64,000 bases of DNA from Vairimorpha necatrix (lineage: Eukaryota), in the NCBI GenBank assembly GCA_036630325.1, contig CP142737.1, forward strand, positions 310,001-374,000, given 5' to 3'. The notes beneath the pieces were generated by a model. That model was given only the letters and a program-made list of their open reading frames with translations, had not been told where the DNA came from and ran no database searches. The translations under genes and the position numbers were made by a program. Positions 1 through 62,400 of this stretch are shown here, in pieces (position 1 is the first letter of the stretch; each line of letters opens with the position of its first letter).

Positions 1-59
1 TCTAATATACTCAGACATTTAGTCCTCGTTACAATTTTTAGCATTAAAAATAAAATCAA

Positions 60-826
60 GTGCTCAGCCTAATGGTCGAAAGATGCTTCCGTTGAGCAAT
101 GCCCGAGTTCAAATCCCGAAGGTACCAAAATCGCTTCTACTTAATGAGATGAAGTTGGAACAACTTAGACGGCGAAAATGTTTACGATAATCATTAAGTT
201 GATCCAATAAAACATGTGGGGATACAGATCCAAAGGGATAGTACCTAGTGTAGAAACGCACCTCAAAGCCGAAAACAGTATCACCTTTGTGGTGACTTTA
301 TGATCCATAAGTATCTGATGGTACGGCTTAGTAAGCCTCATGGCTGGTGCACTCTAGAGTGATTACTAGAGTTAACTAAGAGACTAGACGAAGTGGACAA
401 TAGAAGATCTTGTGGACCCTATTCTACAAGATTCTTTACAAAGTGGCCGAAACTAATGAGAGAGGCTAGAGGTCAGTGCAGAAATATAAAGATGCCGGGC
501 TAGTGATGCGGGGTAAGAAGCCGTGTAGACGATGCAGATAATTATGTGCTTCTTGAGTTAGTACGATGATATCTAATTTCGGATTATAGTGAACTATGCC
601 TGTTAGGTATATCCGCCCAGGGTCACTGACGCGATCTAGGTATTAATGGAAAAGGATGCTTAGAATAAAAATATGATGGATACGGCCGAGCTTGCTGCAT
701 TGACATGTTATGAGAAAAGAGTTTTGGTGAGTAAGAATTTCACAATGCCAGTTGTATAAAGATCACACCTAATCCTTCTGGTGCCATGTGAGGTTCCCCA
801 CCCTTTATTTACTAAGAAAAAAAAAA
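60..826 (+). mobile_element. tRNA-headed SINE-like / Pol III-type structured element (~770 bp)
   Basis: tRNA-like head 60-127 with A-box-like AGCCTAATGG (66-75), B-box GAGTTCAAATCC (105-116), anticodon-like stem TGCTT/GAGCA and end GGTACCA. The body is GC-richer, non-coding and has several hairpins. A10 tail at 817-826. No TSD recognised. Confidence 0.7.
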
Positions 827-2558
827 TTAATTTTATATGAATAAAATTTCTTATTCTAATATTGTCATCGAAGATAAAAACTAATAAAGCAATGAATAGA
901 ATCTAAGAGGCATTAGATAACTCTAAAAATAATAAAAAATGTCAAGAGCACATTTTAAACCTAATTAATCCAAATTTTAGGTCTCATATATAATATTGAA
1001 CGAACTGGAAAAAAATTATCTAAAAAAAGAACTAGCTGGGGAATTTATATATTAACAAAAATTAATTTGATCTTCAAACAAGCGCGTATGATATCAATAT
1101 GCTTACACTGAAAACTAAATAGTCATAGGCAGACATTTTATTATACCATTTGTTTTTTTAAAATTGTTGTTTGTGGTGCGATACATACATCAACAATTTA
1201 TTCCGCAATTAGATAATATATGCCAAAATAAATTATAAATATTAAATTGAATAAAATTGTTTACTGCCCAGGTTACAATTAAAAATATGATGTAGGAAAA
1301 TTAATTTTGAGTTTATCGTTTTGGCTATAATTAAAAAAAACTCAATTTCTGTTCTTTCATCAATGTCCTCTTTAACAAATCACAGTAGTCCATTATATGT
1401 CTCTTAAGATTCTCTAAGATAATTAAATTATTTTAATATCGAGTGTTATGTGAAAAATTTTAGACTTTAGTCAGATTAATTCTATAACTGGCATTATATC
1501 TTGTAAATATGCAAATATTTGGCACATTTCAAACCTATTCTAAATGAATCCTTTTCTCAATCTTAAATCTTAATATTTAGCAATATCAACACCAGCATAG
1601 AACTAGGTCACGTTTGATAAGAATTATAAGATGATTCCAGTAAAATATTTTTATAGACGACTGTTTTTTAACCTATATTGGGTCTAAGTTGGCCCAATGA
1701 CCGATTATAATCTTTCCTTTTTCGTATAAAATTCGTGTTAAGTCATCCAATAATTCTAAAAATTAGGCTTCATAAGTGACTAATTTCTTATAGTTTATGA
1801 AAAAAAATCAAAAGACGCAATATACCTTCGATTGTTGTTCAATATTTTAGTTGATATTTATTTCTATAACATCGGGACAATTTTCATTTTTTAACAAATA
1901 TTATCTATACTTATCCTACGGGGTTATCTGCAAGTCAATAATACAATCGCTATTATGTACTTTACATTTATTTTCAATAATGATTCAAACGCAAATATAC
2001 ATCATATTATAGAGAAGATCTACAATGTTAACGCACAACAAGTTCTAAAAAGAGTCTTACAATTTAATTTTGGTTAAATTAGATATTTTAGAAAAAATAA
2101 TTTTTTGCTCGTTGGGCCGCAATCCTTCTATGAGTTGTAGTTAAGATAAATGAAGAGATTCAATAAGTCTGTGATACTTCCTGCTCTATATACCTTGGTT
2201 AAATTTTCTTTGAGACGATTTTTTGATTTTTTTGATTTTTTTACATAAGTTATACAAACGTAAGTACAACTATAATTTTTTTTACGATAAAAATTGGTTT
2301 ATAAATGAAATGGTCAACTTATAGTTTAAAAAGTTTACCAAGACTATATTGTCTTTTAAATTTTCTTTTGACATCATTGTGTTGACTTTATAAATTTTAT
2401 GAAAAATTCTCCTAAGTTATAATTCAAATTTTGAAATTAAATCTCCCGAAATACGAATATACCACTTATTTTCGAATTTCATGTTTTTTAATGTTTATTC
2501 GGACCTATCAATTTAAAATATAATATATATAATTTTTTTAAATTAACTAGATAATTTA

Positions 2559-3743
2559 TTAGTTATTTTCACCTGAATATCTCCCCATAAAAATAGGTAC
2601 ATTGCTAAATTGAGTTGATTCTTCATCCAAAGGCATATTCTCAACTATATAGAACAGAAAAGGCCTGTTTAATGTTATTTCTTTAATTGAATCCGACCTT
2701 GGAATGTATTGATTCCATTTTAATTCGACTTCTTTTATACCTTGTTCATTAATATCTACCATAGCAATATGTTCAAAATCATTTTTAGAATCTAAAAAAA
2801 AATTACCCAATTTTATAAATTTTTCATTTACTTTTTTTTCTTCTAAATTCTCTTTTGCAATATTTGTTTTCATTTCTGCTAAAAGATCAAATTTTGATTC
2901 AATTTTAAATTTTGGCATTTTAAGATTTATCACATGTTCTGTGGATTCTTCCATCATATCATGTAGTCCATTTCTATTATCCCCTGTAATAAATTTATGA
3001 ACATCAATAAGACTAATATCGTTTTTAGGAAGAACTGCGATAAAATTCATACAGTAAATATTTAAATGCATTCCAATAGCTATAAAATCATTTGTTTCAT
3101 ATTTAAACATTTTTTCGGTTTTTTGCATCATTGGTATTTTTATTTCTTTATTTTTGTTAATATAAAAAATTTCTTCCACCAATTCCAATGAGAAAGGAAC
3201 TTCCCATACAATTTTATACAACACAGTATTCAGTAGTTAAGTTTTTAAATCGTTAAGACTTATCTTCTTTAGTTTATTTACCTTCCATTTAGTTTCGCAA
3301 TCGACAGTTTGAATTATTAGCTGCGTTAAATCTTCTGATGTTATTTCGGGATCAAATTCATGAATTTTTACATTCGAAGACTTGAGAACGGGATTGACAT
3401 CTTCTTCTATAAGTTTTAAATCTTTATTGTAAAATACGAAGTTGTTTACATACACAAATCCTTCTGATTGTAATTTATACCAATGAGAAGACTCAAAAAT
3501 ATTGCGTAACTTAAATGATAAATTTCTAAATTCGTCATTATATATAATTCTACATTCAATATCATCTTCATGACTAAATTCCAGATACTCATGTCTAGCT
3601 AAATTATCAAAAACGTTGAAATAAACCCAAAGTAAATTAATAACTGACAAACAAGAGAATACGAATGTACTATCAGACTCTTGTAACATATGATTAAATA
3701 TATTATTAGATGTGTCTAGCATCATTATGTTTATATTGTTCAT
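2559..3743 (-). pseudogene. Serpin with one in-frame premature stop
   Basis: ORFs 3237-3743 and 2559-3224 are in the same frame (1185 nt in total) and read DLKT*LLNTVLYKIVW, where paralogs have K at the stop. Serpin motifs MMQK, AVLPK, MPKFKIES, LNRPFLFYI and FMGRY are present. Confidence 0.85.
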
Positions 3744-4836
3744 GTAAGGAGGACAATAAATAAAACCGATTTTAAAGAAAGTTAATTTATCATTTTGATG
3801 ATTGCAAGTCTAACAATGCTCTAATATAGCGTCTATTTTGAGATCTTTCTATACTTTTATAAATCAATATATCGAGACAATGCGCCAAAATATGCAATTA
3901 ATATAAATAAATTATTAATCTTATACTTTGAATCAGTATGATTTATATTTTTGTTATTACTCAGTTTTTTAATATACACAATTTCATAGTGTTAATTAAA
4001 AATAAATTATAAATTGGTAACATGCCATCAGATCGTAAAAATGATGTAACTATGAGCAAAAATATTGTTATATGATTATATCAAATTTACCAATGCCTTC
4101 ATATTGAAAAAAGATACTAAAATAGAACAAGTTATTTTTTTATGACAAATTGATTTACTTATTGACAAATTCTTATATAACAAAATATAGACTTGTTTTA
4201 CGCTCGAAAATATAATTAGATTTCATCATTGATTTTATTTTTTTACTGTTTTAAAATATAGATAGAGCTTTCAATATACAGTTGTATCCGAAAATAATTC
4301 TCCATATTTTAGTCTCATAATTTATACCAAAAAATATTATTACCAAAGTTTATTAAAGTCAATTTGTAAAACTATATGAAGTTATATTACATTTTACAAT
4401 AACAAGGCTTCACATTATTTGTCTAGAGTTTTTTGGTCAGTTTTATAATGCGAATTATATTTAATGACGTGGTGTTTGTTTTCTATTATTTTGAGATGAG
4501 GAATCTTATACTATTGAAAAACTGGAAAAAACAAATACAACGTTAAATAATACAAATAATTTGATAACGCAAATGTCATTACATTGATGAAACCCCGTTT
4601 TAACTTAATATAAGTACAACGCATAAAAAACACGTAATCTTATAGCTACTACACATCCATACATTGAATTCGATTTTTTAACGTCTTTGTATGAAGATTT
4701 GTTAGAAAGATTCATCCTCGCACCATATCGAAGAAAAACAATTATATATCCACATCTTCAGGACTTTTTGTTTATAACAAACATTAAATTAGATATTTAA
4801 GATAAAAAACTTGCTTTCAGTCAATAAAAAAGTTTA

Positions 4837-6015
4837 TTAGTTACTTTCCCCCGAATATTTTCCCATAAAACATGGAATAAAAACCATTTCCCCGGGTTCT
4901 ATATTATCTAACCATACCAAATCGACGATATAAAATAAAAACGGCTTGTTAAAAGTAATTTCTTTGACCGGCTCTGACTGCGTGAAATAAGATGAAGCAT
5001 TGGATTCAATTTCTTTTACGCCTTTCTCACTGATGTCAACCATGGCAACATGTTTGAAGTCTTCCTTGGAATTTAAAAATAATGTAATTATTTTTTTAAA
5101 TTCTTCGTTGCCGTTTTCTTTTTTAAATAACTTCTTGACAACCTCTGTTTTCATTTCGGATAGAATGTCGAATGTAGATTCGACTTTAAATTTTGGAATT
5201 TTAAGACAAACATTCCGTCTTTCTGATTTCGCCATTATATCGTGAATACCATTCCTGTTATCTTTTGTAATTAGTTTATGAACGTCCTGAAGACTCATAT
5301 TATTTTTAGGTAACACTGCTATAAATCTCAAAGAATTAACTGAACATATAATTTCCACCATTTGAAAGTCTCCGGTTTCGATTTCCCACATTTTTTCAGT
5401 TTTTTGCATCATTGTTATTTCTTTCGATTCATTTTCGTTGATGTGGAATGTTTCTGATATTAATTCGCTTGAAAACGGGAATTTCCAAACATTTTTATAT
5501 AGTGTTGTGTTCAATAACGTATTCCTTATATCATGATGACATATTTGTGAAAGTTTATTCAATTCACAGCCCGTCAAATATGTTACTGTATAGGTAATAA
5601 GTTTTGACAAATTTTCAATTTTTATGTTAGATCCGAATTCTTGAATTATTATTTTCTGAGATTTTAAAATCACATCAGAAATCGTGTTTATTAGTTTTAA
5701 ATCCACATTACAAAATATAAAGTTATTCGTTTGTACATAGCTTTTTGATCTTTTTGCACTATAACATGATTCAATAAAAATGCGATTGATTCGTGAATTA
5801 AGATCTTTGAATTCTTGATTATAAATTCTTTTACATTGTTCTAAATCTTCAGCACTAAATTCTGGCCACTCATGTCCGGATAAATTTACGAATGCATTGA
5901 TATAAATCCAAATTAAATTAACAACGGATAAAGGAGAGAATACTAAAGAATCTGTCGATTCTTGTAAAAGCTGGTTAAATAGATCATTAGATAAGTCTAA
6001 AACCATGTCGTGCAT
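4837..6015 (-). CDS. Serpin family protein (392 aa)
   Basis: VFSPLS, W-x-FPF, MMQK, AVLPK, IPKFKVES, FNKPFLFYI and FMGKY motifs; no signal peptide seen. Confidence 0.9.
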   Translation of the reverse strand: MHDMVLDLSNDLFNQLLQESTDSLVFSPLSVVNLIWIYINAFVNLSGHEWPEFSAEDLEQCKRIYNQEFKDLNSRINRIFIESCYSAKRSKSYVQTNNFIFCNVDLKLINTISDVILKSQKIIIQEFGSNIKIENLSKLITYTVTYLTGCELNKLSQICHHDIRNTLLNTTLYKNVWKFPFSSELISETFHINENESKEITMMQKTEKMWEIETGDFQMVEIICSVNSLRFIAVLPKNNMSLQDVHKLITKDNRNGIHDIMAKSERRNVCLKIPKFKVESTFDILSEMKTEVVKKLFKKENGNEEFKKIITLFLNSKEDFKHVAMVDISEKGVKEIESNASSYFTQSEPVKEITFNKPFLFYIVDLVWLDNIEPGEMVFIPCFMGKYSGESN

Positions 6016-8237
6016 TTTATACGTTTTTAAGGATTAAAAAAAACATTTATAATTTTTAGATTAATTGATTTATTTGGCACATTTATAATAGAAATTTAAT
6101 GATATACATTCCATTTTTTTAGTTTATTTTTTGAATAACTTTAATTTTATAGCTTTTCGACAGAAATATAAATTTTTTTTCAATGGGCACAACATTGTAT
6201 ATATATACCCATAAGCTACATTTTTTAAAATTTATTAAAATGTGATTGTGTAAAATAAATTAAGCAATATCCGCTTTGTTATGTCTTTTATTAGATACAA
6301 TTTGTATCTAAATTCCTTATAATCATGTTGATTTCTTTGAGAAATTCAAACATATATAATATAATAAAAACTAAATAAATATTCATATAGATTTTGTAAG
6401 CTAGTTTACAAAGAAAAATTTTTATTTGTTGTTTAAATCCATAACTTATACATGTTAAATATCACTTTAATTTTTTGAAAAGTGCGAAACAAAAAAATTG
6501 GGTTAATCTAAAAACCACTCGTGATATTGTGGTAAACATGTCAACAAACATAAATGTAATGGAACCATAACTTTGCACTTATACTTTACAATATTTTTTT
6601 CGATAAACACCCAATTGTTATTAATTTTTGCTTTTAAAATTGTGCACTACGAGTATAAACTAATTGTTAAAGTGTTACAATAGAAATCAAAACTTAATAA
6701 ATTAGTTGTTATCAATTGCAAAACTTTCTATGTATATTTGAGACATCAGCAAAAAAAAGTTATCAAAAATCGATGTAGTTTAGTTTTAATAAAACTTTAC
6801 CTTCCAATTTGTAAGAGACTATCACAAATATAGAAAAGGGTTTTTCAAAACGCCACAAGCGTTGGCCTCCATAAGTGTTGATGCCGAATAACATTTGTTC
6901 TAATTGTAATACCTTAGTATTTTTACGAATAAGGCTAAAATTGTAGTTATCTCGATTAACAGCAAATATAGAGACTGTTATTAGATGCGTTATGAAGAAA
7001 AATGGCATTGAAATGTCATTTGTTGCAGATGATTGAGTATATAATGAATATAGCGCTATTATTTTGTAACATGTGTAAATATTAAAGTTTTAGGTTGACA
7101 AGTATAAATAAATTGTGCGCACAGATAGATCTGATTTTTATTTTTGATCATATTAATTTTGTAACTTATTTTAAAAAAAGAATAAATCAATATTTTTAAA
7201 ACCGATTAATTATTTATTGTTTTTTGTACAAATTTGATAATTACATTTATTCTATTTTTATGATGTGTTCACATGTTAAAATCCTCGATTAAAATTGCAT
7301 TATGTTCAATTCGTGCATTGAAATGCAATGCATACTATATAAAGTTTTTTTTCAAAGCACATGATTTTGTAAAAGTAGGCTTTATCGATATTTATGAATT
7401 GTTATGTGATTGAAAAAATATATTGATACTCAAAACAATGTGTCGCTATGCAACAAACATTTTTTTTCTATTGTTGGAATTTGTATATAACAGTATGACA
7501 TGTTTATTAAAACGCTTCGTGGCATTTAATGCAATTTTATAGGTTCAATACACAAAATTGTTGATCAAAACGCACATCAATTTAGGCATGAAATGATATG
7601 TGTTTAGAAAAATCAAAAACAATTACGACCCAGACAATCATCTGTATTTTCATGTGGTCTCTTAAATTATATGAAGTTTCGATGTTAATTCTCGAAGAAC
7701 CTTGGTATTTTAAATTAATAAATTGTAGACGTAATTCGAGATAAAAAAGATAAAAGCTCCGACGCAATGTAGTACCAAGTAAAATCGTGTGGAAAAAAGA
7801 GCGAATAGTGGTCTATTGTATTTATGAACCAGTACGATATGTTTTTTACAGACAATTCAACATACAAAAAAAACTATTTATGCTGCTAGATATAAAACGA
7901 TCTACATATAAGAGGTAAATGTTTTTTTTATACCGAAGATAATTAAATGTATAATGACTCGCTGGATCAGGAACTTCTTTTTATGATAATTTTTAAGATT
8001 CACGTAAATCGAAAGGTTTCTTTTATCGGTATAAATAGACAAACTTGATTATTTTGGCATTAATTTGCGTAAAATAAGTTAGCAAACTTTCATTATATAA
8101 AATATAATTAAAAATTTACCGAGTTATAAGCTTTGAATAGGTAAAATACGTTTGTTGTCAGATCGTGTCCTCACATTTTTTTGCAATAAAACATTGATAA
8201 TTTTTATAAATAAGCTTGAAATGTTAAATTCATTATT

Positions 8238-9428
8238 TTATTCAATATTTTCTCCAGAATATCTTCCCATAAAAATCGGTACACTACTAAATCTTTTTAA
8301 TTCATCATCTAACGCTATATTTTCGACAATGTAAAATAAAAAGGGTCTGTTCAGTTGTATTTCCTTAAATTCATCTGACTCTGATGATGATGACATTTTT
8401 AATTCTATGTCATTTGCGCCATGATCATTAATATCAACCATAGCTATATGTTCAAAGTCGGTTTGAGAATTAATAAAAACATTTTCAAAATTTATGAAAT
8501 TTTCATCAATGTTATTTTCTTTAAATATCTTTTTTACAGATTCATTTTTCATTTTAAATACAAGATTTAGTACCGATTCTACCTTGAAACTTGGCATTGT
8601 AAGTGTTAAGAAGTGCTCTGTTGCTTTTGACATCAAATCATTCAATCCATTCCTATTGTTTCCAGTAATTGATTTGTGGATATCAAAAAGATTTTTATCA
8701 TTTTTAGGAAGCACTGCTATAAAATTCATACAATATATATTTAACGGCAATGTTACCGCTATAAAATCATCTGTTTCAAATTTTAACATTTTATCAGTTT
8801 TTTGCATCATTGTTATTTTTACAGTTTTATTTTTGTTAATATAAAAATTTTCATTTTCTAACTCCGTTATAAAGGGAATTTCCCAGACACTTGAATACAA
8901 CACGGTATTTAAAATTTTTGTATTGAGATTATTACGACAAACATTTGGAATCTTGTTTAATCTCCATTTAACTTCAGAATTTATAGTTTGACTTATTAAC
9001 TTTGATAGGTCTTCTGACTTCAATGATGATTGATATTCAGTAATAATTAGATTTGGTGACCTAGTAATTTTTTGATCGATTTCAAATATTAGGTTTGACT
9101 CGTCTTTACAAAATATAAAGTTATTTAGGTATACGAATCCTTCAGAATGTCCTTGTTCTAAAAACCAATTGGTTTTGTCAAAAATATTGCGAATTTGATG
9201 ATTTATATCTGTAAATTCGACGTTATATGATTTTTTACGTTGAACAAAATTTTTAAGGTCAAAATCTAGACAAGTATCTCCAGCTATTTTTTCATAAACA
9301 TTAAAATATATCCAAAGAAAATTAATAACCGAAAAAGGAGAGAACACAAAGGTATTTGTATTTTCCTGTAACATTTGATCATATATAACATCGGATATAT
9401 CTAGCATCATATCGTGCAATTTATACAT
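8238..9428 (-). CDS. Serpin family protein (396 aa)
   Basis: VFSPFS, WEIPF, MMQK, AVLPK, LNRPFLFYI, FMGRY; close paralog of 12084-13271. Confidence 0.9.
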   Translation of the reverse strand: MYKLHDMMLDISDVIYDQMLQENTNTFVFSPFSVINFLWIYFNVYEKIAGDTCLDFDLKNFVQRKKSYNVEFTDINHQIRNIFDKTNWFLEQGHSEGFVYLNNFIFCKDESNLIFEIDQKITRSPNLIITEYQSSLKSEDLSKLISQTINSEVKWRLNKIPNVCRNNLNTKILNTVLYSSVWEIPFITELENENFYINKNKTVKITMMQKTDKMLKFETDDFIAVTLPLNIYCMNFIAVLPKNDKNLFDIHKSITGNNRNGLNDLMSKATEHFLTLTMPSFKVESVLNLVFKMKNESVKKIFKENNIDENFINFENVFINSQTDFEHIAMVDINDHGANDIELKMSSSSESDEFKEIQLNRPFLFYIVENIALDDELKRFSSVPIFMGRYSGENIE

Positions 9429-12083
9429 TATGGCTAAAAAAAATAAAAATATATAGTTTCAAAAATAAATTGACTGATTTGAACTGTAATTATAATTACC
9501 ATAACAACTGAAAATATTGTGTAGAGTATTATGGTTCTATCAATCGTCCCTTTTAGGCCAAAAAATGTATTTATCGATTTTTGACAGCACAAGCAAAACG
9601 ACCAACAAGTAAAAGAACAAACAGAATATATACAATAAATAATTTTCTTCTTTTTTTGAGAAAAAAATTCAAAACATTTCAATTTTAGGTTTTTGGATTA
9701 AAATTAAAATTCTAAACAGTTTCTTTATAAATTTACATGTATTAGCGAATTTTAAATATTATTTGTGATATCAATCATTAATTAAGAATTAAAAAAAAAA
9801 CTTTGTATTTTTTACTAATTAAATATTTCTTCAAGGTGATTTTGACGTATGTAATAATTTGTAGATAATTATTTAATATGGCTAGCTCGTTGTGTTACTA
9901 GAACCGAACTAGTTATAACTTAACCATAGAGGACCATTTGTTACAAAATTATACTGAAGGTTGTAAGTATGTAATATTTGAATATTTGATATTTTTTAAT
10001 ATCAAAAAATTTGAAATGATAAAAAAATGGGTAAAATCATTTTATAAGATGTAATTTAGTTTTTATCGTAATTAGTTTTACTTTTTACCATAAGCTTTAT
10101 AGCCTTATACGTCTATTTGTTGTTAACTATAAAGAAGCAATTAGTATATAATTATCATTTTTACAATATCAGCACAATTTTTTAAACATTATAATAGAGT
10201 TTGTAATTAATCTTTATACGCTTATTAACTAGTAAAAAATCATGGTTTTAATTCCAGGCAGTTTCCATATTGATTATAATTTTTGCAATATGTTAAGACA
10301 GTTTGGATTTGTAAATAATTATAAATAAATGTTATAAGATGCATCAACTAATGTTAAGGTTCGGCCTTTGATATGAAAATTAAGCTTTACACATATATAT
10401 ATATATAACATTGTTACATTGTATTTATAGAATAATATAATAATTTACAAATAAATCTAATTGATTTAATTTGAAAAATTTCATTGTCCGTAGTTTTCAT
10501 GTCTCCATGTTTTATCATTGGAATAAAGCATAATGAAATTTGTTTTTTATAGAAAAAACAAATTGAAGATAGTTTCTAAAAAAATTATTAAGACAAAATA
10601 AGAGGATCAAATTTTTTTACGTTAAAAAATCGATTTCTGCCAATTTTTTATTTCAATTTGCACCGAGTATCACATAAAGTTTAATTACATATCTAAGCTC
10701 AAATACAACAAGTCTTAAAAATTTTGTATTATATTGAAGATTAAAATTACTATATCGCTTAAAGGAAAATTTTTATAGAATTATAATAACAATTTTTGCC
10801 CATTCTTAGCAAATAATGCCTACTGCTATACTTATATTTTGTTTACAACACCAAATTTAAGTTTTATAGATGATTTTTCTTCAACGCAATCTTTATCATC
10901 ATTTTTCTATGCAAGTCTTAAACCTCCCTTTTCCAAAAAAGATTTAAAAATTTAATTATAGAATGTACAACAACGTTAAATTAGAAAAAGAATATAATAG
11001 ATACAACAATTTATATATAAGAAATAAATTCCCGAGTAAAAATGTTTTTTAAATGCCGAATAAGTGTTCATTTAATCTTTTAACTTGATCCTGGCCGCGG
11101 ATGACGATGCGTGTCATAAAAAGCAAAATATTTTTCTCATTAAAGTTTCCAGTTAATCTTGACACCATAATCTTTATTATTGTTTAATTAATGTTTTTTA
11201 TGAAATCCATAGATAAGTATAATGCAATAAAAACCCTTCTGAAACGCTGCAGATTTTATGTAAATAAATAAGAGCCATGCATTGTCTGTTGATGATTGCT
11301 CCTTCGAATATTTTGTTCGATACTAGTCTCTCATAATCTAGGTCAATGTTACATCTTTCAAAAGACTATTTAGCTAATAAATGTTTTTAAAATTGCTTAT
11401 TTTAAAGAACTTGTGCCAGTGAACACACATTGCATTTTGAAAAGGTATAATAAATTTTCTTGTGGGATATTGAAAAAAAATTGTTTACGTATCTCATATA
11501 GACGTTTATTAATGGGGATTTTGCCTATGTTGTGTTTTTTTTCTACTTTCAAATATTGTACAATACTTTCTTTTTTACAAATTTGTAATCCTCGTCGATT
11601 CCCCATGAAAGAGTATGTTATCTACAAAATCTAAGTCCTCGGCTTTATTTTTATCAAATATTGCCGGAATCAATTCATAAAACCTTATCATCTCCTTGCA
11701 GTATTTTGCGAGAAGATCATACTTTAACGAGTCTTGTTTACTTTCATATATACGAAATAAATTTTTTTAATTTTAATAGTCTAATCATTTTAAATGTATT
11801 TCTGTTAGCTTCAGACGTTCGCTTTGACGTTGCGTATTGCATATATGAGATCAAGTCCCCCGTGTGTGAAAAATTAATTTATAACTAAAAGATTTTAATC
11901 TAAATGTGTACTGACTATAGATATTAAACTTTAATTGATGAAATTTTGAAACTTATATCATTTGAATAAGAGAGATTCCAAAAAACGTGTTGGTAGCTAA
12001 TCCGCTAGGCTCGGCGATAAAAATACTTGTCTTATTGATACTTAATTTGCAATAAAACATATATAAATTTGTTTAAAATGAAT

Positions 12084-13271
12084 TTATTCAATATTTTCTC
12101 CAGAATATCTTCCCATAAAAATCGGCACACTACTAAATCTTTTAGCTTCATCGTCTAATACTATATTTTCAACAATGTAAAATAAAAAGGGTCTGTTTAG
12201 TTGTATTTCTTTAACTTGATCCGACTCTGATGTATCAGATGAAATTTCCAATTCTATATCATTTGCGCCATGATCATTAATATCAACCATAGCTATATGT
12301 TCAAAATGATTTTTTGAATTAGAAAAAATATTTTCAAAATTAATGAAATTTTCATCAATGTTATTTTCTTTTAATATTTTTTTCACAGGTTCATTTTTCA
12401 TTTTAGATGCAAGATTAAGTACAGATTCGATTTTAAATTTTGGCATTGTAAGATTAATTGTATTTTCTGTTGCTTTTGCCATTATATCATTCAATCCATT
12501 CCTATTATTTCCCATGATAAATTTTTGAATATCACAAAGATTTTTGCCATTTTTAGGAAGCACTGCTATAAGATTCATACAGTATACATTTAATGGCAAT
12601 CCAATTGCTAAAAAATCTACAGTATCATATTCGAACATTCTATCAATTTTTTGCATCATTGGTAATTTTACAGTTGTATTTTCATTGATATAAAAATTTT
12701 GCTCATCTAACACCGTTAAAAAAGGAATTTCCCAGACACTTGTATACAACACGGTATTCAAAAATTTTATCTCAAAATTCTTACGACAAACATCTGGAAT
12801 CTTGTTTAACAACCATTTGGTTTTATTATTTACAGTTTGTACTATTAGATTTGGTATATGCTCAGTTTCTAAAGTTGGTTCAAATTCTTTCAAAACTAAA
12901 TCCGGCGTATCAACAATATCTTGTTTAATTTTACTTATAAGGTTTAATTTTTTGTTACAAAATACAAAGTTATCCTGGTACACTAAACCTTCGGTTTGTT
13001 TTTTATACCATTGAGAAGATTCAAATATATTGCAAAACTCGATGTTTAAATCGTGGAATTCGTCATTATATGTTTTAATACATTGAATATAATCTTTAAA
13101 TACAAATTCTGGACTCTCATGTTTGACAATTTTTTCATGAACATTAAAATATATCCAAAATAAATTAATAATGGACAAAGGAGAGAACACAAAGGTATTT
13201 GTATTTTCCTGTAACATTTGATCATATACTTGATCGGATATATCTAACATCATATCGTGGAGTTTGTACAT
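12084..13271 (-). CDS. Serpin family protein (395 aa)
   Basis: Same serpin motifs. Start reassigned to ATG 13271 (CCCATAATG, MYKLHDMMLD as in the paralog) rather than the TTG in the ORF track. Confidence 0.9.
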   Translation of the reverse strand: MYKLHDMMLDISDQVYDQMLQENTNTFVFSPLSIINLFWIYFNVHEKIVKHESPEFVFKDYIQCIKTYNDEFHDLNIEFCNIFESSQWYKKQTEGLVYQDNFVFCNKKLNLISKIKQDIVDTPDLVLKEFEPTLETEHIPNLIVQTVNNKTKWLLNKIPDVCRKNFEIKFLNTVLYTSVWEIPFLTVLDEQNFYINENTTVKLPMMQKIDRMFEYDTVDFLAIGLPLNVYCMNLIAVLPKNGKNLCDIQKFIMGNNRNGLNDIMAKATENTINLTMPKFKIESVLNLASKMKNEPVKKILKENNIDENFINFENIFSNSKNHFEHIAMVDINDHGANDIELEISSDTSESDQVKEIQLNRPFLFYIVENIVLDDEAKRFSSVPIFMGRYSGENIE

Positions 13272-20461: not shown

Positions 20462-20548
20462 ATAAAATAGGAAGAAATTTATATTTAATCGGCACATTTA
20501 TCGTGTAGAAGAAATGAATCTCATAATAACACAGATATGTTTGTAACC

Positions 20549-21127
20549 AATGCATGGCCTTTTATAATCTGCATTATAAATTTATAGAAGGGAGAAATTA
20601 TTAAAAAAGAGACTTAACGATTTATTTTGAATAATACAAGAAGATGATATATACGTTGATTAAAAGGTATTTGATGAGCACAAAGGAACTGTAAAAGATA
20701 CTCATAGTGACACCATGAGAATTACATGCTTAGATCGAATGTTTCCCCAAAAACGACCCAAATCCCAAATTTGTTGAGTATGTGTCTCAAGATCGTTAAG
20801 GATTATAAATTGGTGGGTGGGTTCACATTCGTTTGCGCCATCATTGTAATTTGTCAAAATGCGGCATCATGTGCTCCCCATTGATCATAACAGAACTAGA
20901 AAATACATTATCTTGTATCCCCTCAAAAGAATAGCAGTATTTCTACTAGCCATAGGACATGTAAAGCACACTGATTCTAAATTATTCAAAGTTTTTTACA
21001 TAAACTTAACTTCATTTTCAAATTTAAAAAAACTCCTCTGTTTTAACAATGTTCGTTCTTTTTTATAGGGGTTAAATTTTCAGCGCATGTTCATTTATCC
21101 AATGCGGGTTCCAAACGGCCATACACC
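20549..21127 (-). mobile_element. 579-bp non-autonomous DNA transposon (MITE), copy 1
   Basis: Right end GCGGGTTCCAAACGGCCATACACC (to 21127), degenerate left end AATGCATGGCCTTTT; collinear inverted similarity to 54465-55043. Confidence 0.7.
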
Positions 21128-22030
21128 AAAAAAACTAATAGACATAAAATGTGCTGGAAAAATAATAAATAAACACAATGAACGACGAAAGACTCATGAT
21201 AGCGTTTCATGTATAAATATGGTTAAGTTATATATAACTCCTGCATGTAAGCGCGTTATAAAAAAAAGGTAGTCGAAAAGGCAACATTATAGTCTCATTC
21301 TTCGGATATGTTACAAAGTTAAATGCATTTTTATAAACAATTGACAAAATACACTGAATCTTGACAAAATATTTCTAATGAAAAACATCTATAGTTTAGA
21401 AACCCAAGACGATGATATATTGATAATTTACAATAAGTTTTTGAGATTTTGACAATTGCAAAAGAAATTTAAATAATGCGTAAGTGTAAAATCAATATGA
21501 ACAGCATGGGGCAAAAGGAGGACAATGAACTGGAAATCTGAGTTTACCCAGCAATTGTCCAAAAATTAAACGAAAAAAAATGTCGTATTGCAGGACGAAA
21601 GCGAATTTGTAAATATAGTGTAACCTCTGGCCGTATTGTCTGATATTATTGCTGCATAAAACACTTGTGTATTTACTATGTTCTTTAATTTTGTCTTATT
21701 ATTTTGATCATAATTCTTAAAAGGATTTTTTTATACCATAAGTTGCTGCAAATCTGGTCTCGTATTCCTTTTTGTATGCTGGTCTATAATGCATACTTAC
21801 TTAGATCTGTCAATAAAGATATTTTCTATGAGAACTGGGTGAAATAATGTAAAATTTCGCTAGTACTATATTTATGGTGTGATTTTATACCTTAAAATAT
21901 CACATGTGACCAGTATTTCAAAATACATAATTTCATAAATCATATGAGGTAATAGTTGCAATAATAAAGCTCATTACCAAAAATTAACATGGTTTAGTAT
22001 ACGAAAAATCGTTTTTTATTATGTACATAA

Positions 22031-22079
22031 TATAAGTGCTTAACATAATTGGGGTTTAATATTATTACTGATTATAACA
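22031..22079 (-). repeat. 3' LTR (49 bp)
   Basis: Minus strand TGTTATAATCAGTAATAATATTAAACCCCAATTATGTTAAGCACTTATA, preceded by the PPT. Confidence 0.9.
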
Positions 22080-22095
22080 TCCCCCCTCCAGACGG

Positions 22096-25000
22096 TTAGT
22101 CTCCTTCAACATACTTTAAATCCCCTACACCCTTAAGATCATAATGCCTTTTTTTCACCAACCTTCCATTCTCTAATCTCACTATATATGAATCCCCTGG
22201 ACATAGCTCAATCACTCTTCCCATGTCTAAAAATCGGCCCTTACTATACTTACTACATCCCTTTAAATTCTCATTCTTGGCAACCCTAACTATCTGGTTC
22301 CTTTTGAACTTTTCTCTAAACCAACTTTTGAACTGTTGCGCATACTTTCCCTCTGGACTATTCTCCATACTAACATTTCCTGTATTATCGGTTAAAGCTT
22401 CTACTGGCGTACACTTAATACCAGCATGAAAACTTAAATTATATTTCTCAATAGCTTCATAAACCTTGTTCTCGAATTGCTCTTTTTGGCTCTTTAAAAT
22501 ACTATCTCTTACAGTTCTAATAACTCTTTCTACTCTTCCATTACTTCTGTGCGACTCAACGCTGACCTTTCTATGACTAATATCCAAATTTCTACATAGC
22601 TCGGTAACTTTTTCGTTGCAAAGCTCTTTACCATTATCCGTAATGATTTCCTCTGGTTTTCTACCCTGTTTACACAAATCCTTGATAAATTCGGCAATTC
22701 CAGATGCGTGCTTGCTCTTCAATACTCTGCCCCATAATCTCCTTGTAAAGTAATCAACTGCCAAAACAATAAACGCTTTCTCATCCCTAAATTCTATTAA
22801 ATCTAAGCCAACCTTCTCTAAATATCTTGTCGTGTTCACTAAATCAGTACCGCCACTCGTTTTTCTATTAAAAATCTGACAAGTCTCGCAATTCTTAAGG
22901 ACCTTTTCGATCTGATCCTTAATTCCTGGCCAATAATACTGTTTCCTCAACTCATAATATACCGTTGTTCTGCTTCTGTGGCTCAAATTTACATGACAAT
23001 CCATTATTAATCTCTCTCTGTCTTGTTCCAAAGGCATCTCGCCTTCTCTACCACTATCAAATACCCAGTATTCTTTACCTTCTACAATTTTTACATGCTT
23101 ATTTCTTTTCCCTTCTTTTTGTCTATCACGGCGTGTTTCATTTCTCTTTTTCTTTGCATCTTTTTCTTTTGTATATACCCTACTTAGCGCATCGGCTACG
23201 ACCATATTTTCTGGAGTTCTATATTCTATCACGAAATCAAATTCCTGAATCTTCTCGACCCATCTATTAATTCTAGCATTCTTAAAGTCGGGCTTGTTTC
23301 TTATTTCGCCCAACGCTTTATGATCAGTTTCTATTCTAAAGTTCCTACCTCTTAATTCATATTCAAACTTTTTAACGCCCCAAAAAATTGCGTACATTTC
23401 TTTTTCTGATATACCATAATTAACTTCCGTAACGGTAAACTTCTTAGACGCCCACTGTACTGGCACCCATTCTCCTTGATTTTATTTCTGTAACAGTACT
23501 GCGCCCATACCTACATTACTAGCGTCAGTCCTCAACAAAAATTCTTTATGATAGTCTGCTATTTGCAGCTTTCCTAGGCCTTTCAATACTTCTTTTAAAT
23601 TATTAAACTCGTTTTTCATATCATCCGTCCACTTCCAATTATCATTCTTCCCTTTTAAACTATCTGTCAACCTAACTGTCAATCCAGCGTAATTCTTAAT
23701 AAAATCTCTGAAACAACCCGTCATTCCTAAAAATCTTCTTACATCTGACACGCATGTTGGTATCGGAAACTCTAGGGCTTCATTTTTCTTTATCTCTGAC
23801 GGTATTATATCTTCTCCATTTAAAGTGACTCCCAATAATTTAACTTCCCGTTGACAAAACTGAACTTTATTTGCATTCAGCTTCATATTGTTTTCCTTCA
23901 GTCTATTTAATACCCTTTTCACTAATTGCTCGTGTTCTCCTATCGTTCGGCTGTACAACACAATATCGTCCATATACACCTCTAATCCTTTGCCTTTCAT
24001 ATCTCTAAAAATCCTATCCATAATTCTCTGCAATATCTGCGGGCTATTCTTATATCCCATAACCATAGAGTTCCATTCATAAACCTTGCCATTAAAATCA
24101 AACGCCGTCTTATGTTTATCCTCCTCCTCTATCTCAATACTATAGAAGGCCTCTTTAAGTCGAAAACCGTCATATATTTTGCACCTTGTGTAGCTCTTAC
24201 AACATCTCTTATGTTAGACAATCTATACTCGTCCTTTTGTACAATATCGTTCAATGCCATCAAATTACTAACCAGTCTTATATCACCATTTGGCTTTCTG
24301 ATTGACCTTATAGGATTCCTCCAACTTGAATTTGACTCTCTTATCACTTTCCTTTTTAATAAATCTTCTAGATGTAGCTCTGTATCTTTTATCAACGCCT
24401 GCGGAACCATTTGTCCCTTTTTAAATACCTTCATACCCGCTTCAGTATTAATTTTACATTTTTCCAGTTTACAATATTTTATCTCCTCTTTTCCTAACTT
24501 AAAAACCTCTCCAAAACTCTTAGCATACTTATCTAAATTTAATCTGATTCTCTTACTCTCCTCTTTAACGGCATATTCTTTTTGATTTTTCTCAAATTTG
24601 ACTCTAAGTCCTCTTTTTGATCTTCTAAAATCTCGCTCCTGACTTGACTCTGATTCACTACCTACTTCCATTTTGCAACTGTTATCCTTGTTATTCTTTT
24701 TATAATAATTATCTCTATTAATCTTCAGTCTGCATTCAAACACCCTATGCCCTTGTCTATCACAATAGAAGCATCTCGGTACTCTCGATTTTTGTCTTGG
24801 TTGTTCTCTACTAATTTCTTCATTTATAGTCCTAGAAATAATTTTTCTCATTTCCTCATATATCTTTTCTTTTTCCTCTACTTCCTTAATCCTTAACAAT
24901 AGCTTCTTCCTTATTCCTTCAATATTTTCTTCCTTTTTGATATTTCTCACAATAAAATCTTTTAAATCCATCGAAGCCAACTTGAACAGCTCACTCTTCC

Positions 25001-25139
25001 ATTTCACTCTATCTACATCTCTCAAATCCAATTCATACAATATACGCTCTAACTCCTGTAACATCTTTCTGACCACTTGGCCACAGTCCTCTCTTGTGAA
25101 CTCTTCTTTAGGTATCGCCCCCATATAAGTGCTTAACAT
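22096..25139 (-). pseudogene. Gag-Pol polyprotein (CCHC knuckle, RT, RNase H, integrase) with one frameshift and one nonsense codon
   Basis: CFYCDRQGHRVFEC; RT YMDD; RNase H LRTDAS, ETDHKAL, ADALSR; integrase HHCC plus GLD/TDNG/VER. A 1-nt deletion near 24155 (GACTTAAAGAGGCC, expected DLKEAFY) and an in-frame TAA at 23482-84. Repaired length is about 1014 aa. Confidence 0.9.
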
Positions 25140-25172
25140 AATTGGGGTTTAATATTATTACTGATTATAACA
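25124..25172 (-). repeat. 5' LTR (49 bp) containing CCCC motif and Gag ATG
   Basis: Identical to 22031-22079; ATG at 25139 lies inside it; followed directly by the PBS. Confidence 0.9.
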
Positions 25173-25819
25173 CATAATAAAAAAATTTTGGTCAAAATGT
25201 TATGTATCAAAATGGAATTTATCTTAACATGTTTAAAATTCTAAATTATAAAATATATATATATTTTATGCCAGGATTGATGTTCCTTAAAGAAAGTTGT
25301 ATGTTTACCACTTAACATGTAAACTTAAGTTCCAAACTCTAAATAAAAACCAAGAGCAAAAAAATTGGGCGTCAGAAAAATTCATATAATTTTGAAAAAA
25401 TATTGTATATTTACATTTATTTTATAGTTTTGTTTTCCTTTCTTTGTAGGCTGTCAAACTATAATTGACATAAGAATATATGATTTGTTATCTTATAGAC
25501 AGATGATGTATCAAAGACCTAAGGTATCTAAATACAGCCTAAACCATGTGCAAGAATATTTTGCTATTTTATGTATGTGTTAAAAAAAAGCTAAAGTCAA
25601 TATCTCGTAAAACATGGCAAAAAATTAAAATTTGTAAACTATTATCTTTATAAAATACTTATGTAGATTTGATAATCATAAATGCCCTACTCTCGTAAAC
25701 TAGTCATATTTTTTATTTTAATATATTGTAGACATGATATCATTGCATTTCTTTTAATAGGCACCTGTCAATCATATTAAAAATTTTAAGGTTTAAATTA
25801 GTTTTTTCTCCCCATTTAA

Positions 25820-26962
25820 ATGAATACATTTAATAACATGATGCTAGATATATCTAACACTATGTTTTATGGGCTTTTACAAGAATCAGAAAATACACTT
25901 GTCTTCTCTCCGTTGTCGGTTATTAATTTACTTTGGTTGTATTACAACGGATCTGAAAATCTAAAAGACAGAAATGAATATGATTTAAAATCTTATAATC
26001 GAGAATTTAAAGATTTAAATGAAAAAATTTGCAATATTTTTGAAAGTACTCATTGGTATAAAAAACAATCCAAAGGATTTGTGTACATAAATAATTTCGT
26101 ATTTTACAACAAAGACCTGAAACTTATAGATAAAGAAATTTTTACGTCGACAAATGTTAAATTACAAGAATTTAAACAAGGCATTAAGGCAAAGACTTTA
26201 TCAAAACTAATAAAACGAACAGTGAATAAAACCACCAAATGGAAGATAAACGAAATTTTGAATATCAAAAATAATGTGTTAACTGCAAAAAATTTGAATA
26301 CTGCACAATATAAAAGTGTCTGGAAAACATTTTTCTCAAATGTGCTAGTACATGAAAATTTTTATATCAGGGAAAATAAAATAATAAAAATTCAAATGAT
26401 GCAAAAAAAAGACAAAATGTTAGTATTAGACACAAATGATTTTATAGCAGTTGGTGTGTCATTAAATATAGCAAATTTGAAATTTGTCGCAGTACTTCCT
26501 AAAAATAATAAAAAGCTACAAGATATTCATTATGAAATAAATAAAGATAACATTTATGGACTTCATGATATGATGGCAAAAGCAGAGAGGAATATTGTAA
26601 ATCTTAAAATGCCTAAATTTACAGTAGAATCAAAATTTGATATTTTTAAAGAAATGAAAACAGAGGCTATTGGAAATAAAGCAGAATTTACAGATTTGTT
26701 AGAAAGCTTTTTAAAGTCTGAAAATGACTATGAACACGTCGCAATGGTTGATATTAACGAACAAGGCGTTAAAGAGAAAGATTCATCATCAGATATGTCA
26801 GACGACGACGAAGAAGAACTAAAAGAAATAATATTGAACAGACCATTTTTATTTTATATAGTTGATTCAGTTTTTGTTAATCTTGGTTTATCTAGATCTG
26901 TCTATACACCAATATTTATGGGAAAATATTCGGGTAATAATAACGAAAAAAATTTGCTTTAA
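25820..26962 (+). CDS. Serpin family protein (380 aa)
   Basis: VFSPLS, MMQK, AVLPK, MPKFTVES, LNRPFLFYI, FMGKY; CCCC upstream. Confidence 0.9.
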   Translation: MNTFNNMMLDISNTMFYGLLQESENTLVFSPLSVINLLWLYYNGSENLKDRNEYDLKSYNREFKDLNEKICNIFESTHWYKKQSKGFVYINNFVFYNKDLKLIDKEIFTSTNVKLQEFKQGIKAKTLSKLIKRTVNKTTKWKINEILNIKNNVLTAKNLNTAQYKSVWKTFFSNVLVHENFYIRENKIIKIQMMQKKDKMLVLDTNDFIAVGVSLNIANLKFVAVLPKNNKKLQDIHYEINKDNIYGLHDMMAKAERNIVNLKMPKFTVESKFDIFKEMKTEAIGNKAEFTDLLESFLKSENDYEHVAMVDINEQGVKEKDSSSDMSDDDEEELKEIILNRPFLFYIVDSVFVNLGLSRSVYTPIFMGKYSGNNNEKNLL

Positions 26963-28070
26963 TTAAAATAAAAATCATCAATTAAAGATTTTTACTAATT
27001 TTTACTTTATATAGAATTTTTTTTAAATAATAATTATCAATACCTATATTATTAATTAGTTTATATTTGTAATATTGTTAATTATATCTTGTTTGTTAAT
27101 ACATAATGAACTTATACATAAAGAACATATCATTAGAATTTATTATTGTTTTAATAAACAAAATATTCGGCATTTTAAATTTTTTTCACAAAATTACTAC
27201 ATGCACATAAAACACATTGTCACTCGTAGTGGGAGATGCTCTACTAGCTGCTAGCCGGATTTAAATAATTTACATTTAAAAGCAGTAGATGTTTTATTAT
27301 TTTTAATCGCTTGGCATAGATCTGGAAAAAATCACTTTGATAGTTTATTTCTAATAGGCGTTATTAATCTTATAAATACGTCTATCATATGCAATTTCTC
27401 AGATTATGACATAACATGCAACAAACACTTTATGATTAGTCATCTGTCTGTTGATGATGACGAATTTGTTTGTGTCGATGGCTCAGTCGCATTGAAATAT
27501 GTTGATCATTTTCAAATATGCACAGAAAATATATTTCTTGCATTAAATATTAATATTATCATTTCATAATCATATTATACCGTAAATTTTAATGTATCAA
27601 TGAACAAGAATAATTTAATTTAACACAAGTCATAACTTATGAAAAAAACTTACGTATTATAAAAAAATCTTTGATTTTATGTATAATTACAATACAAATT
27701 ATTGCGATAAATAAAAGGTTTATTTCATATCTACAAACCTTTGCGTTGGTTAGAATGTATGTGTACTTGAATATATAAGAAAAGTGTAGTATATACGGAA
27801 AATTATCTGTAATTGAGTGCATTAATATTTCCTTAAAAACATTTATTGGTTTTAATTTTAGATTGACAATTTCGCGTAATTTATTTAATATTGATATTTG
27901 GCGGGGGTTCATAGAAGTTAATTTTTTTGCAATAAGTAAATATATAACTTACTTAAACAGATTTTTTGCTTTCATAAAAATATTACAATTTATTTATTAA
28001 AAGTTTACAGTTATCTGTCAAATATGTTGATATACTCAAAAAGTATAAACTTTTTTCTTACCCTCATTAA

Positions 28071-29221
28071 ATGTATAATTTAAATAATATGATGCTAGAT
28101 ATCTCTAACAATATCTTCATTCAATTACTACAAGAATCAGACAATACATTTGTTTTTTCTCCTTTGTCTATTATTAATTTGCTCTGGATATATTTTAATG
28201 GATTTGGTAATGTATCTAATAATAAAAAATCAATGTTCCTTGAACTTGACATATGTAGAAAATCATACAATAAAGAATTTCATAATCTATTTCATAATCT
28301 TTCCGATATTTTTGAAAAAACCAATTGGTATAATAAAAAATCGGGAGGGTTTTTGTACCTCAAAAACTTTGTTTTTTGCAACAAAGATCTAAATCTAACT
28401 CGCGATTTTCATAAAATGATTAGCAAGTCTCCGTATGTAAAAATTCAAGAATTTTTTAATGTATTGAAAAATGATGAAATATCTCAACTAATAAATCTTA
28501 CAATAAATAAGTATACTAAATTTAAGTTAAACAATATACCTAGTACAATACAGGACAAGTTAAACCCAAAATTGGTGAATACTGTTTTATACAAATGTAT
28601 TTGGAAATCTTCATTACAAATAAATTAGTAAATGAAAATTTTTATATTAATAAAAACCAAATTATTAAAATACCAATGATACAGAAGATAGAAAAAATGT
28701 TTGAAATAGAAACTACCGAGTTTCAAATGGTTCAATTATCGTGTTCTATTAAAAACCTAAGTTTTGTAGCTGTACTTCCTAAAAAATATAATTTGAAAGA
28801 TATTCACAATTTGATTTTAAAAAATAGCAGAGGTGCACTGTTTAACATAATGTTAAAAACTAAAAAACATTTTGTAAGTCTTAAAATACCAAAATTTAAA
28901 GTGGAGTCGAAAGTTGATATTATTAAAGAAATGAAAACGGATGCTGTTAAAAAAGTACTGAGAAATAACCAACAATTTCTCATATTATCGAATAAATTTT
29001 TGGAATCTCAAAATGATTATGAGCATGTTGCTATGGTTGATATCAACGAAGAAAGAGAAAAAAAATCTAAAAATTTTTATAAAACTAAAAAGATCAAAGA
29101 GGTAATATTTAATAGACCTTTTTTGTTTTATGTTATTAAACATGTTAGGTTAGATAATTATTCGCATTTGAATTCTTTTATACCTTGTTTAATGGGAAGA
29201 TATACAGGCAATGAGAACTAA
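28071..29221 (+). pseudogene. Serpin with single frameshift
   Basis: Two overlapping ORFs (28071-28628, 28595-29221) encode the N- and C-terminal halves. The total of 1151 nt is 1 nt short of a reading frame, with the break near 28605 (ATTTGGAAATCTTC). Confidence 0.85.
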
Positions 29222-61136: not shown

Positions 61137-62400
61137 GGTTAAGTTCTCGACTTACCCCCCCACCCCTAAAAAAAATAAAAAAAGGGGAAAAAATAAAAAA
61201 AAATAAAAAAAGGGGAAAAAATAAAAAAAAATAAAAAAAGGGGAAAAAATAAAAAAAAATAAAAAAACGTTTAATTCTCGACTTAACCCCCCTTACCCCC
61301 CAAAAAAAACAAAAAAAATTATTCCACAATTGTAAAGTCTATTTCAGGAATAATATCATAAGCTACAATACTAAAATTACCTATTTGAAAAAATTCTAAC
61401 ATTTTATCCAATAGATTTTCACGATATATTAATTTGAATCTGTTAATGTAAATCTTTCTTACAAGATTCATAATAGTACCATGACTAGTTCCTCCTTTTC
61501 TTAGTTCTCTTTTAATAACCGACCACATTCCCTCTATAGTCTGAGTATGCGCACCAGTTATATTATCAACAAAATTTTGGCTGTGATTCACAGTCAAATG
61601 TAGATACTCATATTCTACACAGATTGTTTGAATATCACAATATCCACGCCAACAATCTGTCACAATTGTGGTCCCCGGAGCAATTTTTCTTGTAATTAAT
61701 TCAACAAGAGTAGCTCTTGTTCTATTTTCTACGATCTCAAAGAAAAAAGAATTTGCATCCCCTCTCACAACGCCTCCAACTGCCCATACTTGATATTGAA
61801 GAACCCTTCCCGCATGGTTTTTACTTTTTACAAGTAAAGTTTCATCAATTTCAACAATACAACCGACGCCGCCAATCGTTTGATTGTTTATATATGTTGA
61901 ATAAGAGACGTACACGGCGTTATTAAAACGCGTAAACCATCTTGATACCGTACATTTACCTATATCAAGTTCTAACGTGGAGGCCAAATTACTTGAACCC
62001 TTTACCCATTCGCTAAGCAATATTAAAAGATCCTCAATAGGCAATTTTGAGTTCTTAAAAACGCTTTGTTTCATTATGGTTCCTTTGTTAGAACATTTTT
62101 TACCATCACGCCTTGAATAACAACGATAGTTTTCAGTGTTGGTCCGATTTTGAGTCATTGGTATATTGCATTTATTGCACATAGGGACCCTCAAAATGTT
62201 TTTTGCAATTAAAAATTGCATTAACTCATTTTTTTTATAGATGAGTTTTCTAAATTCTTTAATTCTCATTATGGGTCAAATTTTTTATTTCTTTTATTTT
62301 TTCCCCTTTTTTTATTTTTTCCCCTTTTTTTTATTTTTCCCCCCTTTTTTATTTTTTTTTATTTTTTTTAGGGGTGGGGGGGTAAGTCGAGAACTTAACC
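61137..62400 (-). mobile_element. Intact Merlin (IS1016/IS1595-like) DNA transposon, 1264 bp
   Basis: Perfect 46-bp TIRs starting GGTTAAGTTCTCGACTTACCCCCCCACCCC; 8-bp TSD CAGATAGC (61129-36, 62401-08); subterminal A-rich GGGG repeats. Confidence 0.95.
61319..62269 (-). CDS. Merlin DDE transposase (316 aa)
   Basis: N-terminal CxxC...C...C zinc ribbon; VEIDET, IVTDCWRGY, HLTVNHSQNFVD, HTQTIEGMWS; CCC before ATG. Confidence 0.95.
   Translation of the reverse strand: MRIKEFRKLIYKKNELMQFLIAKNILRVPMCNKCNIPMTQNRTNTENYRCYSRRDGKKCSNKGTIMKQSVFKNSKLPIEDLLILLSEWVKGSSNLASTLELDIGKCTVSRWFTRFNNAVYVSYSTYINNQTIGGVGCIVEIDETLLVKSKNHAGRVLQYQVWAVGGVVRGDANSFFFEIVENRTRATLVELITRKIAPGTTIVTDCWRGYCDIQTICVEYEYLHLTVNHSQNFVDNITGAHTQTIEGMWSVIKRELRKGGTSHGTIMNLVRKIYINRFKLIYRENLLDKMLEFFQIGNFSIVAYDIIPEIDFTIVE

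Follow-up and report, generated by a model that had tools for sequence, protein, structure and literature searches.

A 64,000-bp stretch of the Vairimorpha necatrix genome (GenBank assembly GCA_036630325.1, contig CP142737.1, positions 310,001 to 374,000; hereafter the window) carries on its minus strand a 3142-bp element, which we interpret with high confidence as a Ty3/gypsy long terminal repeat (LTR) retrotransposon that inserted recently, is now a broken copy, has lost its protease and belongs to a type with LTRs of about 39-49 bp. Its boundaries are set by a target-site duplication (TSD), and its domain order is Gag, zinc knuckle, reverse transcriptase (RT), RNase H and integrase. An aspartic protease is absent throughout its lineage, in which catalytic residues and the layout of the LTR are conserved. 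The lineage-wide loss of the protease together with a much reduced Gag is the part that is surprising for a specialist; the tiny LTR and the start codon inside it are already on record. The parts of the element, with positions in the window and in the order of transcription, are as follows, where PBS denotes the primer-binding site and PPT the polypurine tract.

25173-25177, no strand: TSD on the 5' side (CATAA on the plus strand), directly outside the 5' LTR
25124-25172, minus: 5' LTR, 49 bp, TG...TA, with ATTAAA at 25153-25148, CCCC at 25147-25144 and ATG at 25139-25137
25111-25123, minus: PBS starting with TGG, coding (M-G-A-I-P), directly after the 5' LTR
24732-25139, minus: small Gag of four helices (aa 17-112), then one CCHC knuckle (aa 123-136)
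24535-24731, minus: charged linker of about 65 aa at the place of the relatives' aspartic protease, without a protease
23476-24534, minus: RT (YMDD) and start of RNase H; Pfam RVT_1 E 4.7e-27
22096-23475, minus: rest of RNase H and integrase (HHCC, DDE core, C-terminal beta domain); stop codon at 22096-22098
22090-22103, minus: conserved pre-PPT motif GAGACTAACCGTCT, overlapping the stop codon, a candidate cis signal
22080-22089, minus: PPT GGAGGGGGGA, abutting the 3' LTR
22031-22079, minus: 3' LTR, 49 bp, same as the 5' LTR, with ATTAAA at 22060-22055
22026-22030, no strand: TSD on the 3' side (CATAA on the plus strand), directly outside the 3' LTR

The original prediction of identical 49-bp repeats bounded by TSD, PBS and PPT is borne out at 22031-22079 and 25124-25172. 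The PPT touches the 3' LTR, the PBS the 5' LTR and the TSD both, so that each of the four boundaries is set without recourse to the repeat itself; the identical 49-bp repeats are whole LTRs. The exact repeat is 50 nt long, since the first base of the PBS and the first base of the TSD coincide by chance; a random 5-mer match such as the CATAA pair has a chance of 0.3% in these flanks. On the minus strand the LTR termini read TG...TA instead of the usual TG...CA, which is a convention rather than a strict criterion. Each LTR contains the three motifs claimed for it, namely ATTAAA at LTR positions 20-25, CCCC at 26-29 and ATG at 34-36, and the claim that CCC precedes most host start codons likewise stands, as CCC lies at most 20 nt upstream of 15 of the 21 other open reading frame (ORF) starts in the window, compared to 5.4% of background 20-mers. 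The PBS is itself coding, as was proposed, and the last LTR base (25124) together with the first two bases of the PBS makes up a second in-frame ATG. The PBS may resemble a tRNA-Pro site; it does not match any of the three tRNA-Ala genes of the window. The distance between the LTR ATG and the stop codon of the integrase amounts to 3044 of the 3142 bp (96.9%), in agreement with the figure of about 97% given earlier, but this stretch is interrupted by a frameshift and a stop and is not one open frame.

The assignment to the gypsy group follows from the order RT, RNase H and DDE integrase and from the RT itself, which groups with gypsy-type RTs in a tree whose outgroups were gypsy-type matches only, with no copia or BEL rows. 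Further Pfam matches on the element are RT_RNaseH (E 2.6e-20), Integrase_H2C2 (E 1.3e-14) and rve (E 2e-9), and the C-terminal beta domain of the integrase is recognised from the AlphaFold model of the relative P0001. Without an aspartic protease between Gag and RT, the element is a variant and not a standard member of Ty3/gypsy (Metaviridae).

The absence of the protease, which the original prediction overlooked, is evident from several comparisons. Pfam recovers from the window element a weak CCHC knuckle, RT, RNase H and integrase but no protease. Among relatives picked for a visible protease motif, an aspartic-protease family is matched at E <=0.01 in 8 of 8, as against none of four clade proteins. 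We aligned 45 proteins, 40 of them from the 53 closest relatives and five from a second set, after exclusion of 12 truncated, short or chimeric rows and of P0048, a member of the sister group with a degenerate protease; no aspartic-protease family occurs in this alignment among the matches listed (25 of 54 families). A protease profile built from the eight relatives recovers its own members at 20.7-56.8 bits when each is left out in turn and reaches 61.3 bits on the metagenomic locus L004, whereas none of the 45 aligned proteins exceeds 3.0 bits and each of the six reading frames of the window stays below 0. The linker between knuckle and RT is likewise short, with at most 80 aa in 39 of 42 clade rows (the exceptions have 109, 112 and 170 aa), compared to 99-125 aa in six protease-bearing rows. 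In the AlphaFold model of P0001 the linker residues 143-198 are disordered (pLDDT <50), while Gag, RT, RNase H and integrase fold. Each unbroken relative consists of one ORF of about 1000-1050 aa; the named hosts are Nosema granulosis, Vairimorpha necatrix and Enteropsectra breve.

In a tree of RT and RNase H from 58 chosen rows, 33 protease-less rows including the window element form a clade (support 97/84; 86/66 with the addition of P0141). The sister group consists of protease-bearing gypsy elements of microsporidian type (L004, P0136, P0048, P0153 and P0232; 98/94), and the union of both receives 100/99. These sisters keep the aspartic protease, and a Gag motif resembling the major homology region (MHR) is present in three of the four tested (P0153 was outside the test). 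Because the protease-less clade nests within protease-bearing sisters, the loss of the protease is derived and took place once or twice. Identity to P0001 is at least 42% among unbroken members of the clade. At thirteen positions involved in catalysis or zinc binding, no more than one of the 37-45 sequences covering each deviates, and this conservation argues that the lineage has kept transposing. The sister element L004 also carries, at 886-1437 between integrase and PPT, an extra ORF of 183 aa with a CCHC-like knuckle and its own CCC-ATG start, followed by the LTR at 1445-1503; its main polyprotein has no knuckle before the protease, and the extra ORF has no significant Pfam match. L004 may be a gypsy element in which the nucleocapsid function has moved to a 3' gene.

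The Gag upstream of the knuckle has a median length of 134 aa in 33 sequences, and the usual two-lobed capsid protein is longer than this. At this length Gag appears much reduced and too short for such a capsid protein. The AlphaFold2 model predicts four helices, of which the last is long, with pLDDT mostly above 90 for aa 21-110. Fold searches with this model returned no significant match in the PDB with Foldseek (best E 0.91; Arc C-lobe E 1.2), with VIA-align (best Z 6.6) or in BFVD (best E 0.13, to HIV Gag fragments). Look-alikes in the Atlas include Retrotrans_gag and Ty3_capsid clusters at 0.89-0.92, which serve as leads only. The CCHC knuckle reaches E 0.013-0.019 against Pfam zf-CCHC, below the cut-off. 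An MHR-like motif occurs in none of 37 clade proteins as opposed to six of 15 relatives; the profile of the capsid C-terminal domain failed its own leave-one-out control. Profile-profile comparison with the sister Gags gave a weak resemblance on the N-terminal lobe (probability 3-6%, E 0.006-0.014).

Short LTRs of the same layout recur in other elements. Out of 79 loci in a metagenome scan seven were inspected closely, and three of these have LTRs. L005 is a complete, decayed element of 3163 bp with 39-bp LTRs (one mismatch) and a TSD of TTATA. L003 has a 49-bp LTR after the PPT, the length of which is inferred because the 5' LTR lies outside the contig. L004 has a single 59-bp LTR between PPT and PBS with the same layout as the window LTR. 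The termini are TG...CA in all three and in retroL of Anncaliia algerae. The order of poly(A) hexamer, CCC and ATG is found in four of five LTRs tested (window, L003, L004 and the 3' LTR of L005), at a shuffle frequency of 5e-5 to 6.5e-4; the miss is the 5' LTR of L005, in which the ATG is lost. With retroL, where the same order is seen by eye, the compact layout first noted in the window thus recurs in four other elements. It could be argued that the 49-bp repeats are remnants of longer LTRs, or that the missing protease is private to a dead copy, given the two lesions in the window copy and the LTRs of 105-272 bp in most complete An. algerae families (PMC4202319). We regard this as highly improbable: PPT, PBS and TSD adjoin the repeats on all four sides, independent elements have LTRs of 39-59 bp, the protease is missing across the clade from intact ORFs of about 1000-1050 aa, and L005 and retroL already contradict it. 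The LTR lengths of the window element, L003, L004, L005 and retroL are 39, 49, 49, 49 and 59 bp when sorted, in steps of ten or about one helical turn, which in so small a sample may be due to chance. The lengths of Logan contigs (3.0-3.3 kb) were dropped as a measure of LTR length, as such contigs break inside any repeat. Two further loci, L001 and L002, hold fragments of clade members without recognisable LTRs. In both (L001:50-2578 and L002:1092-3620) the Gag of a clade member is joined in frame to part of the RNase H of another gypsy element, probably as the outcome of a nested insertion or a deletion.

The pre-PPT motif is identical in retroL, similar in L003 and L005, and present at the C-termini of 15 of the 53 closest relatives in several reading frames. 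It is predicted to form a stem with the PPT, with uncontrolled folding energies of -10.8 kcal/mol in L003 and -9.8 kcal/mol in L005, but only -3.7 kcal/mol in the window. The motif is a candidate for a packaging or plus-strand priming signal. The regions concerned are 22080-22103 in the window, L003:3191-3221, L005:3633-3663 and L004:1414-1444, the last of which shows a different hairpin of 6 bp at this position.

Translation apparently starts inside the LTR. Among the 53 closest proteins, 22 begin with M-x-[YHND]-M-[AG], with the second methionine at residue 4-11. When any residue is allowed before this second methionine, all 22 have Y, H, N or D there, as is to be expected if the LTR ends in ACA or ATA directly before TGG; apart from seven that begin at the second methionine, the remaining proteins of the set are truncated or different at the N-terminus. 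In L003 the LTR ATG and the junction ATG stand in different frames, and at the junction P0051 reads H-G-T and P0012 reads D-G-T. These two proteins pass the junction in another frame, and hence the LTR ATG must be the start there, which together with the frame of L003 upholds the view that this ATG opens the polyprotein. The residues after the junction methionine differ by subfamily among P0001-P0053 (GAIP, ANTR, APSE, ATAA and ASAT), implying that several primer sites may be in use within one clade.

The window copy is broken twice, by a frameshift near 24150 in RT and by an in-frame stop at 23482-23484 in RNase H, and the original prediction missed both. Neither a solo LTR nor a second copy is present within the 64-kb window, and a scan of viral contigs gave no relative of the element. 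We compared contigs from four sequencing runs with window positions 20500-26500. In run X1, two contigs span 22052-25143 with 18 differences and one gap relative to the window; 5 of the 13 differences examined are synonymous, a proportion that is uninformative. The window stop codon is not present in the contigs of X1 and of a second run, X2, so it appears specific to the window copy or its assembly. One X2 contig departs from the window flank at 22028, just 3 nt beyond the 3' LTR, as would fit an insertion at another site. Both this departure and L005, with its own 5-bp TSD, stand up to the refuting conditions named with the original prediction, namely flanks shared beyond the 49 bp or other copies without TSDs at these boundaries. 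A diverged sister element of 3165 nt is also present in X1. Sequencing depth in X1 is 34-37 over the element and 2.7-4.3 over its flanks, which suggests many copies, although depth is no copy number.

Several observations weigh against the interpretation given so far. The full protein cannot be encoded by the window copy with its two lesions. Seven of the 53 relatives begin only at the junction methionine. The deepest protease-less branch, P0141, joins the clade with a support of only 86/66, and a single loss is not proven by it. The pattern used in the shuffle test was composed after the LTRs had been seen, and its three parts had been named earlier from the window alone. Finally, a sister LTR that appears in X1 as a 29-nt loose end (among the 20 of 151 loose ends listed) has CCCC at 25-28 but neither AATAAA nor ATTAAA within these 29 nt.

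Contrary to what the original prediction had implied, tiny LTRs are not new but were already tabulated: Table S1 of Parisot et al. 2014 (PMC4202319) lists An. algerae retroL as complete, with an LTR of 50 bp, an ORF at 32-3049 and a length of 3127 bp. By eye, the tabulated retroL has 49 bp from TGT to ACA, AATAAA at 20-25, CCC at 28-30, ATG at 31-33 and no protease motif. According to the same source, An. algerae retroS has an LTR of 45 bp, the ORF usually starts inside the LTR, and retroL belongs to Microsporidia Group 1, next to which N. bombycis Nbr5 is listed in the text layout of a figure. The available main text of that paper notes a single polyprotein, discusses no LTR lengths and has no occurrence of the word "protease". 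The window element and retroL share a size of about 3.13 kb, one ORF starting in the LTR, a coding PBS and an identical pre-PPT motif; they differ in the LTR end (TA in the window element, CA in retroL), the PBS and the hexamer (ATTAAA versus AATAAA). We consider that the window element may be placed in the Group 1 of Parisot with retroL, a likeness that is judged by eye. Full-text literature searches over main texts, with Xu et al. 2006 (Nbr1-8) outside their scope, found no protease-less microsporidian gypsy lineage, and none is described in the available parts of PMC13174016, PMC5012567 and PMC7313128.

Among other known systems, Ty3 of Saccharomyces cerevisiae shares with the window element the order RT-RNase H-integrase, a PPT, a 5-bp TSD and probably tRNA priming. 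In Ty3 the LTRs measure about 340 bp, GAG3 and POL3 occupy separate frames, the capsid protein is two-lobed and maturation requires a protease. The shortest terminal repeats found discussed in the literature, as far as main texts were available, are those of 85 bp in FRetro129 (SMART/TRIM), a non-autonomous plant element with a 5-bp TSD (PMC3281118). SMART/TRIM elements are non-coding and non-autonomous, whereas the window lineage encodes RT, RNase H and integrase and has even shorter repeats.

A life cycle can be proposed that would fit into 49 bp. For Encephalitozoon cuniculi, PMC2803860 reports 5' untranslated regions of 1-7 nt, a CCC-like motif before most starts, and 3' ends marked by AAUAAA or AUUAAA. 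By analogy, the 5' LTR would act as an ordinary microsporidian promoter from which the RNA starts 1-7 nt before the ATG (LTR position of about 27-33), and the RNA would end near position 35-45 of the 3' LTR. The poly(A) hexamer would be situated in U3, upstream of the RNA start, so that only the hexamer of the 3' LTR is transcribed. R would then comprise about 5-19 nt and the minus-strand strong-stop DNA, primed by a host tRNA at the coding PBS, about 17-23 nt, with all values of U3, R and U5 being estimates. We consider this scheme of promoter start, 3'-end signal in the 3' LTR, short R and strong-stop, and tRNA priming to be likely. The distance from the polymerase site to the RNase H site of RT spans about 18 nt and is close to the predicted strong-stop length. 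As the shortest retroviral R given in PMC6088434 has 16 nt, the predicted R is at the known limit and not beyond it.

How the polyprotein works without a protease is less certain. The leading option, which we favour tentatively, is that the protein of about 1010 aa acts uncut in cis: its knuckle would bind its own RNA, reverse transcription and integration would proceed as one chain, and the disordered linker would serve as a tether. We rank uncut action above cleavage by a borrowed or host protease because the linker is variable and has no conserved site. Alternatively, protease-bearing gypsy families in the same genome could lend their enzyme for the cleavage, which would make the lineage semi-autonomous. 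Protease-bearing relatives exist, including the sister group with L004; An. algerae has longer families beside retroL, of which one shows a D-T-G motif by eye in the available sequences, and the linker is predicted to be exposed. Retroelement proteases, however, work within co-assembled particles, and Gag is here much reduced. Linker length ranges from 27 to 170 aa, hardly any residue is conserved in it, and no protease-bearing element lies within the 64-kb window. We consider borrowing unlikely. We give no more credit to a host protease cutting the disordered linker and freeing Gag from RT-RNase H-integrase. The linker is charged and, in the model, unstructured, and the clade consensus shows a weak N-K...Y pattern after the knuckle; on the other side, linkers differ widely in length and a conserved motif for cleavage was not found.

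Beyond uncut action alone, a more far-reaching view is that an old and widespread lineage retrotransposes autonomously without a protease or a closed capsid. One uncut chain, composed of a helical oligomerising stub, zinc knuckle, RT, RNase H and integrase, would act in cis like the proteins of long interspersed nuclear elements (LINEs), with a strong-stop DNA of only about 15-23 nt transferred across an R of less than 20 nt. We hold this combination to be possible but rather doubtful. If true, the lineage would complete a minimal LTR life cycle with no need for proteolytic maturation or encapsidation.

LTRs hundreds of bases long and maturation driven by a protease count among the core features of retroviruses and LTR retrotransposons. 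The present lineage, which occurs in Nosema granulosis, Vairimorpha necatrix, Enteropsectra breve and, judged by eye, Anncaliia algerae, keeps the active-site residues of RT, RNase H and integrase without a protease and with LTRs of about 39-49 bp. With 3.1 kb it offers a natural minimal system in which to ask whether an uncut Gag-RT-integrase chain is capable of transposition and where the lower limits for the length of R and strong-stop DNA lie. LTR finders with a minimum of 50-100 bp would miss these elements, and microsporidian transposable element counts are therefore probably low.

The neighbours of the element are a Rad17-like gene, a tRNA-Ala (the only Rfam match nearby) and serpins. 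The retrotransposon adjoins an array of serpin-like genes at 2559-13271 and 25820-29221, some of which are split into two ORFs; Pfam Serpin was checked for 25820-26962 only. Between Rad17 and the retrotransposon, at 20595-21300, there seems to be a further repeated, decayed element, to judge from the high depth and the numerous loose ends of X1 and X2 in this region. Towards the end of the window, at about 61270-62395 on the minus strand, there is a Merlin/IS1595-like transposase of 316 aa (Pfam DDE_Tnp_IS1595, E 4.8e-13) with inverted ends TTCTCGACTTA, which looks like an intact DNA transposon.

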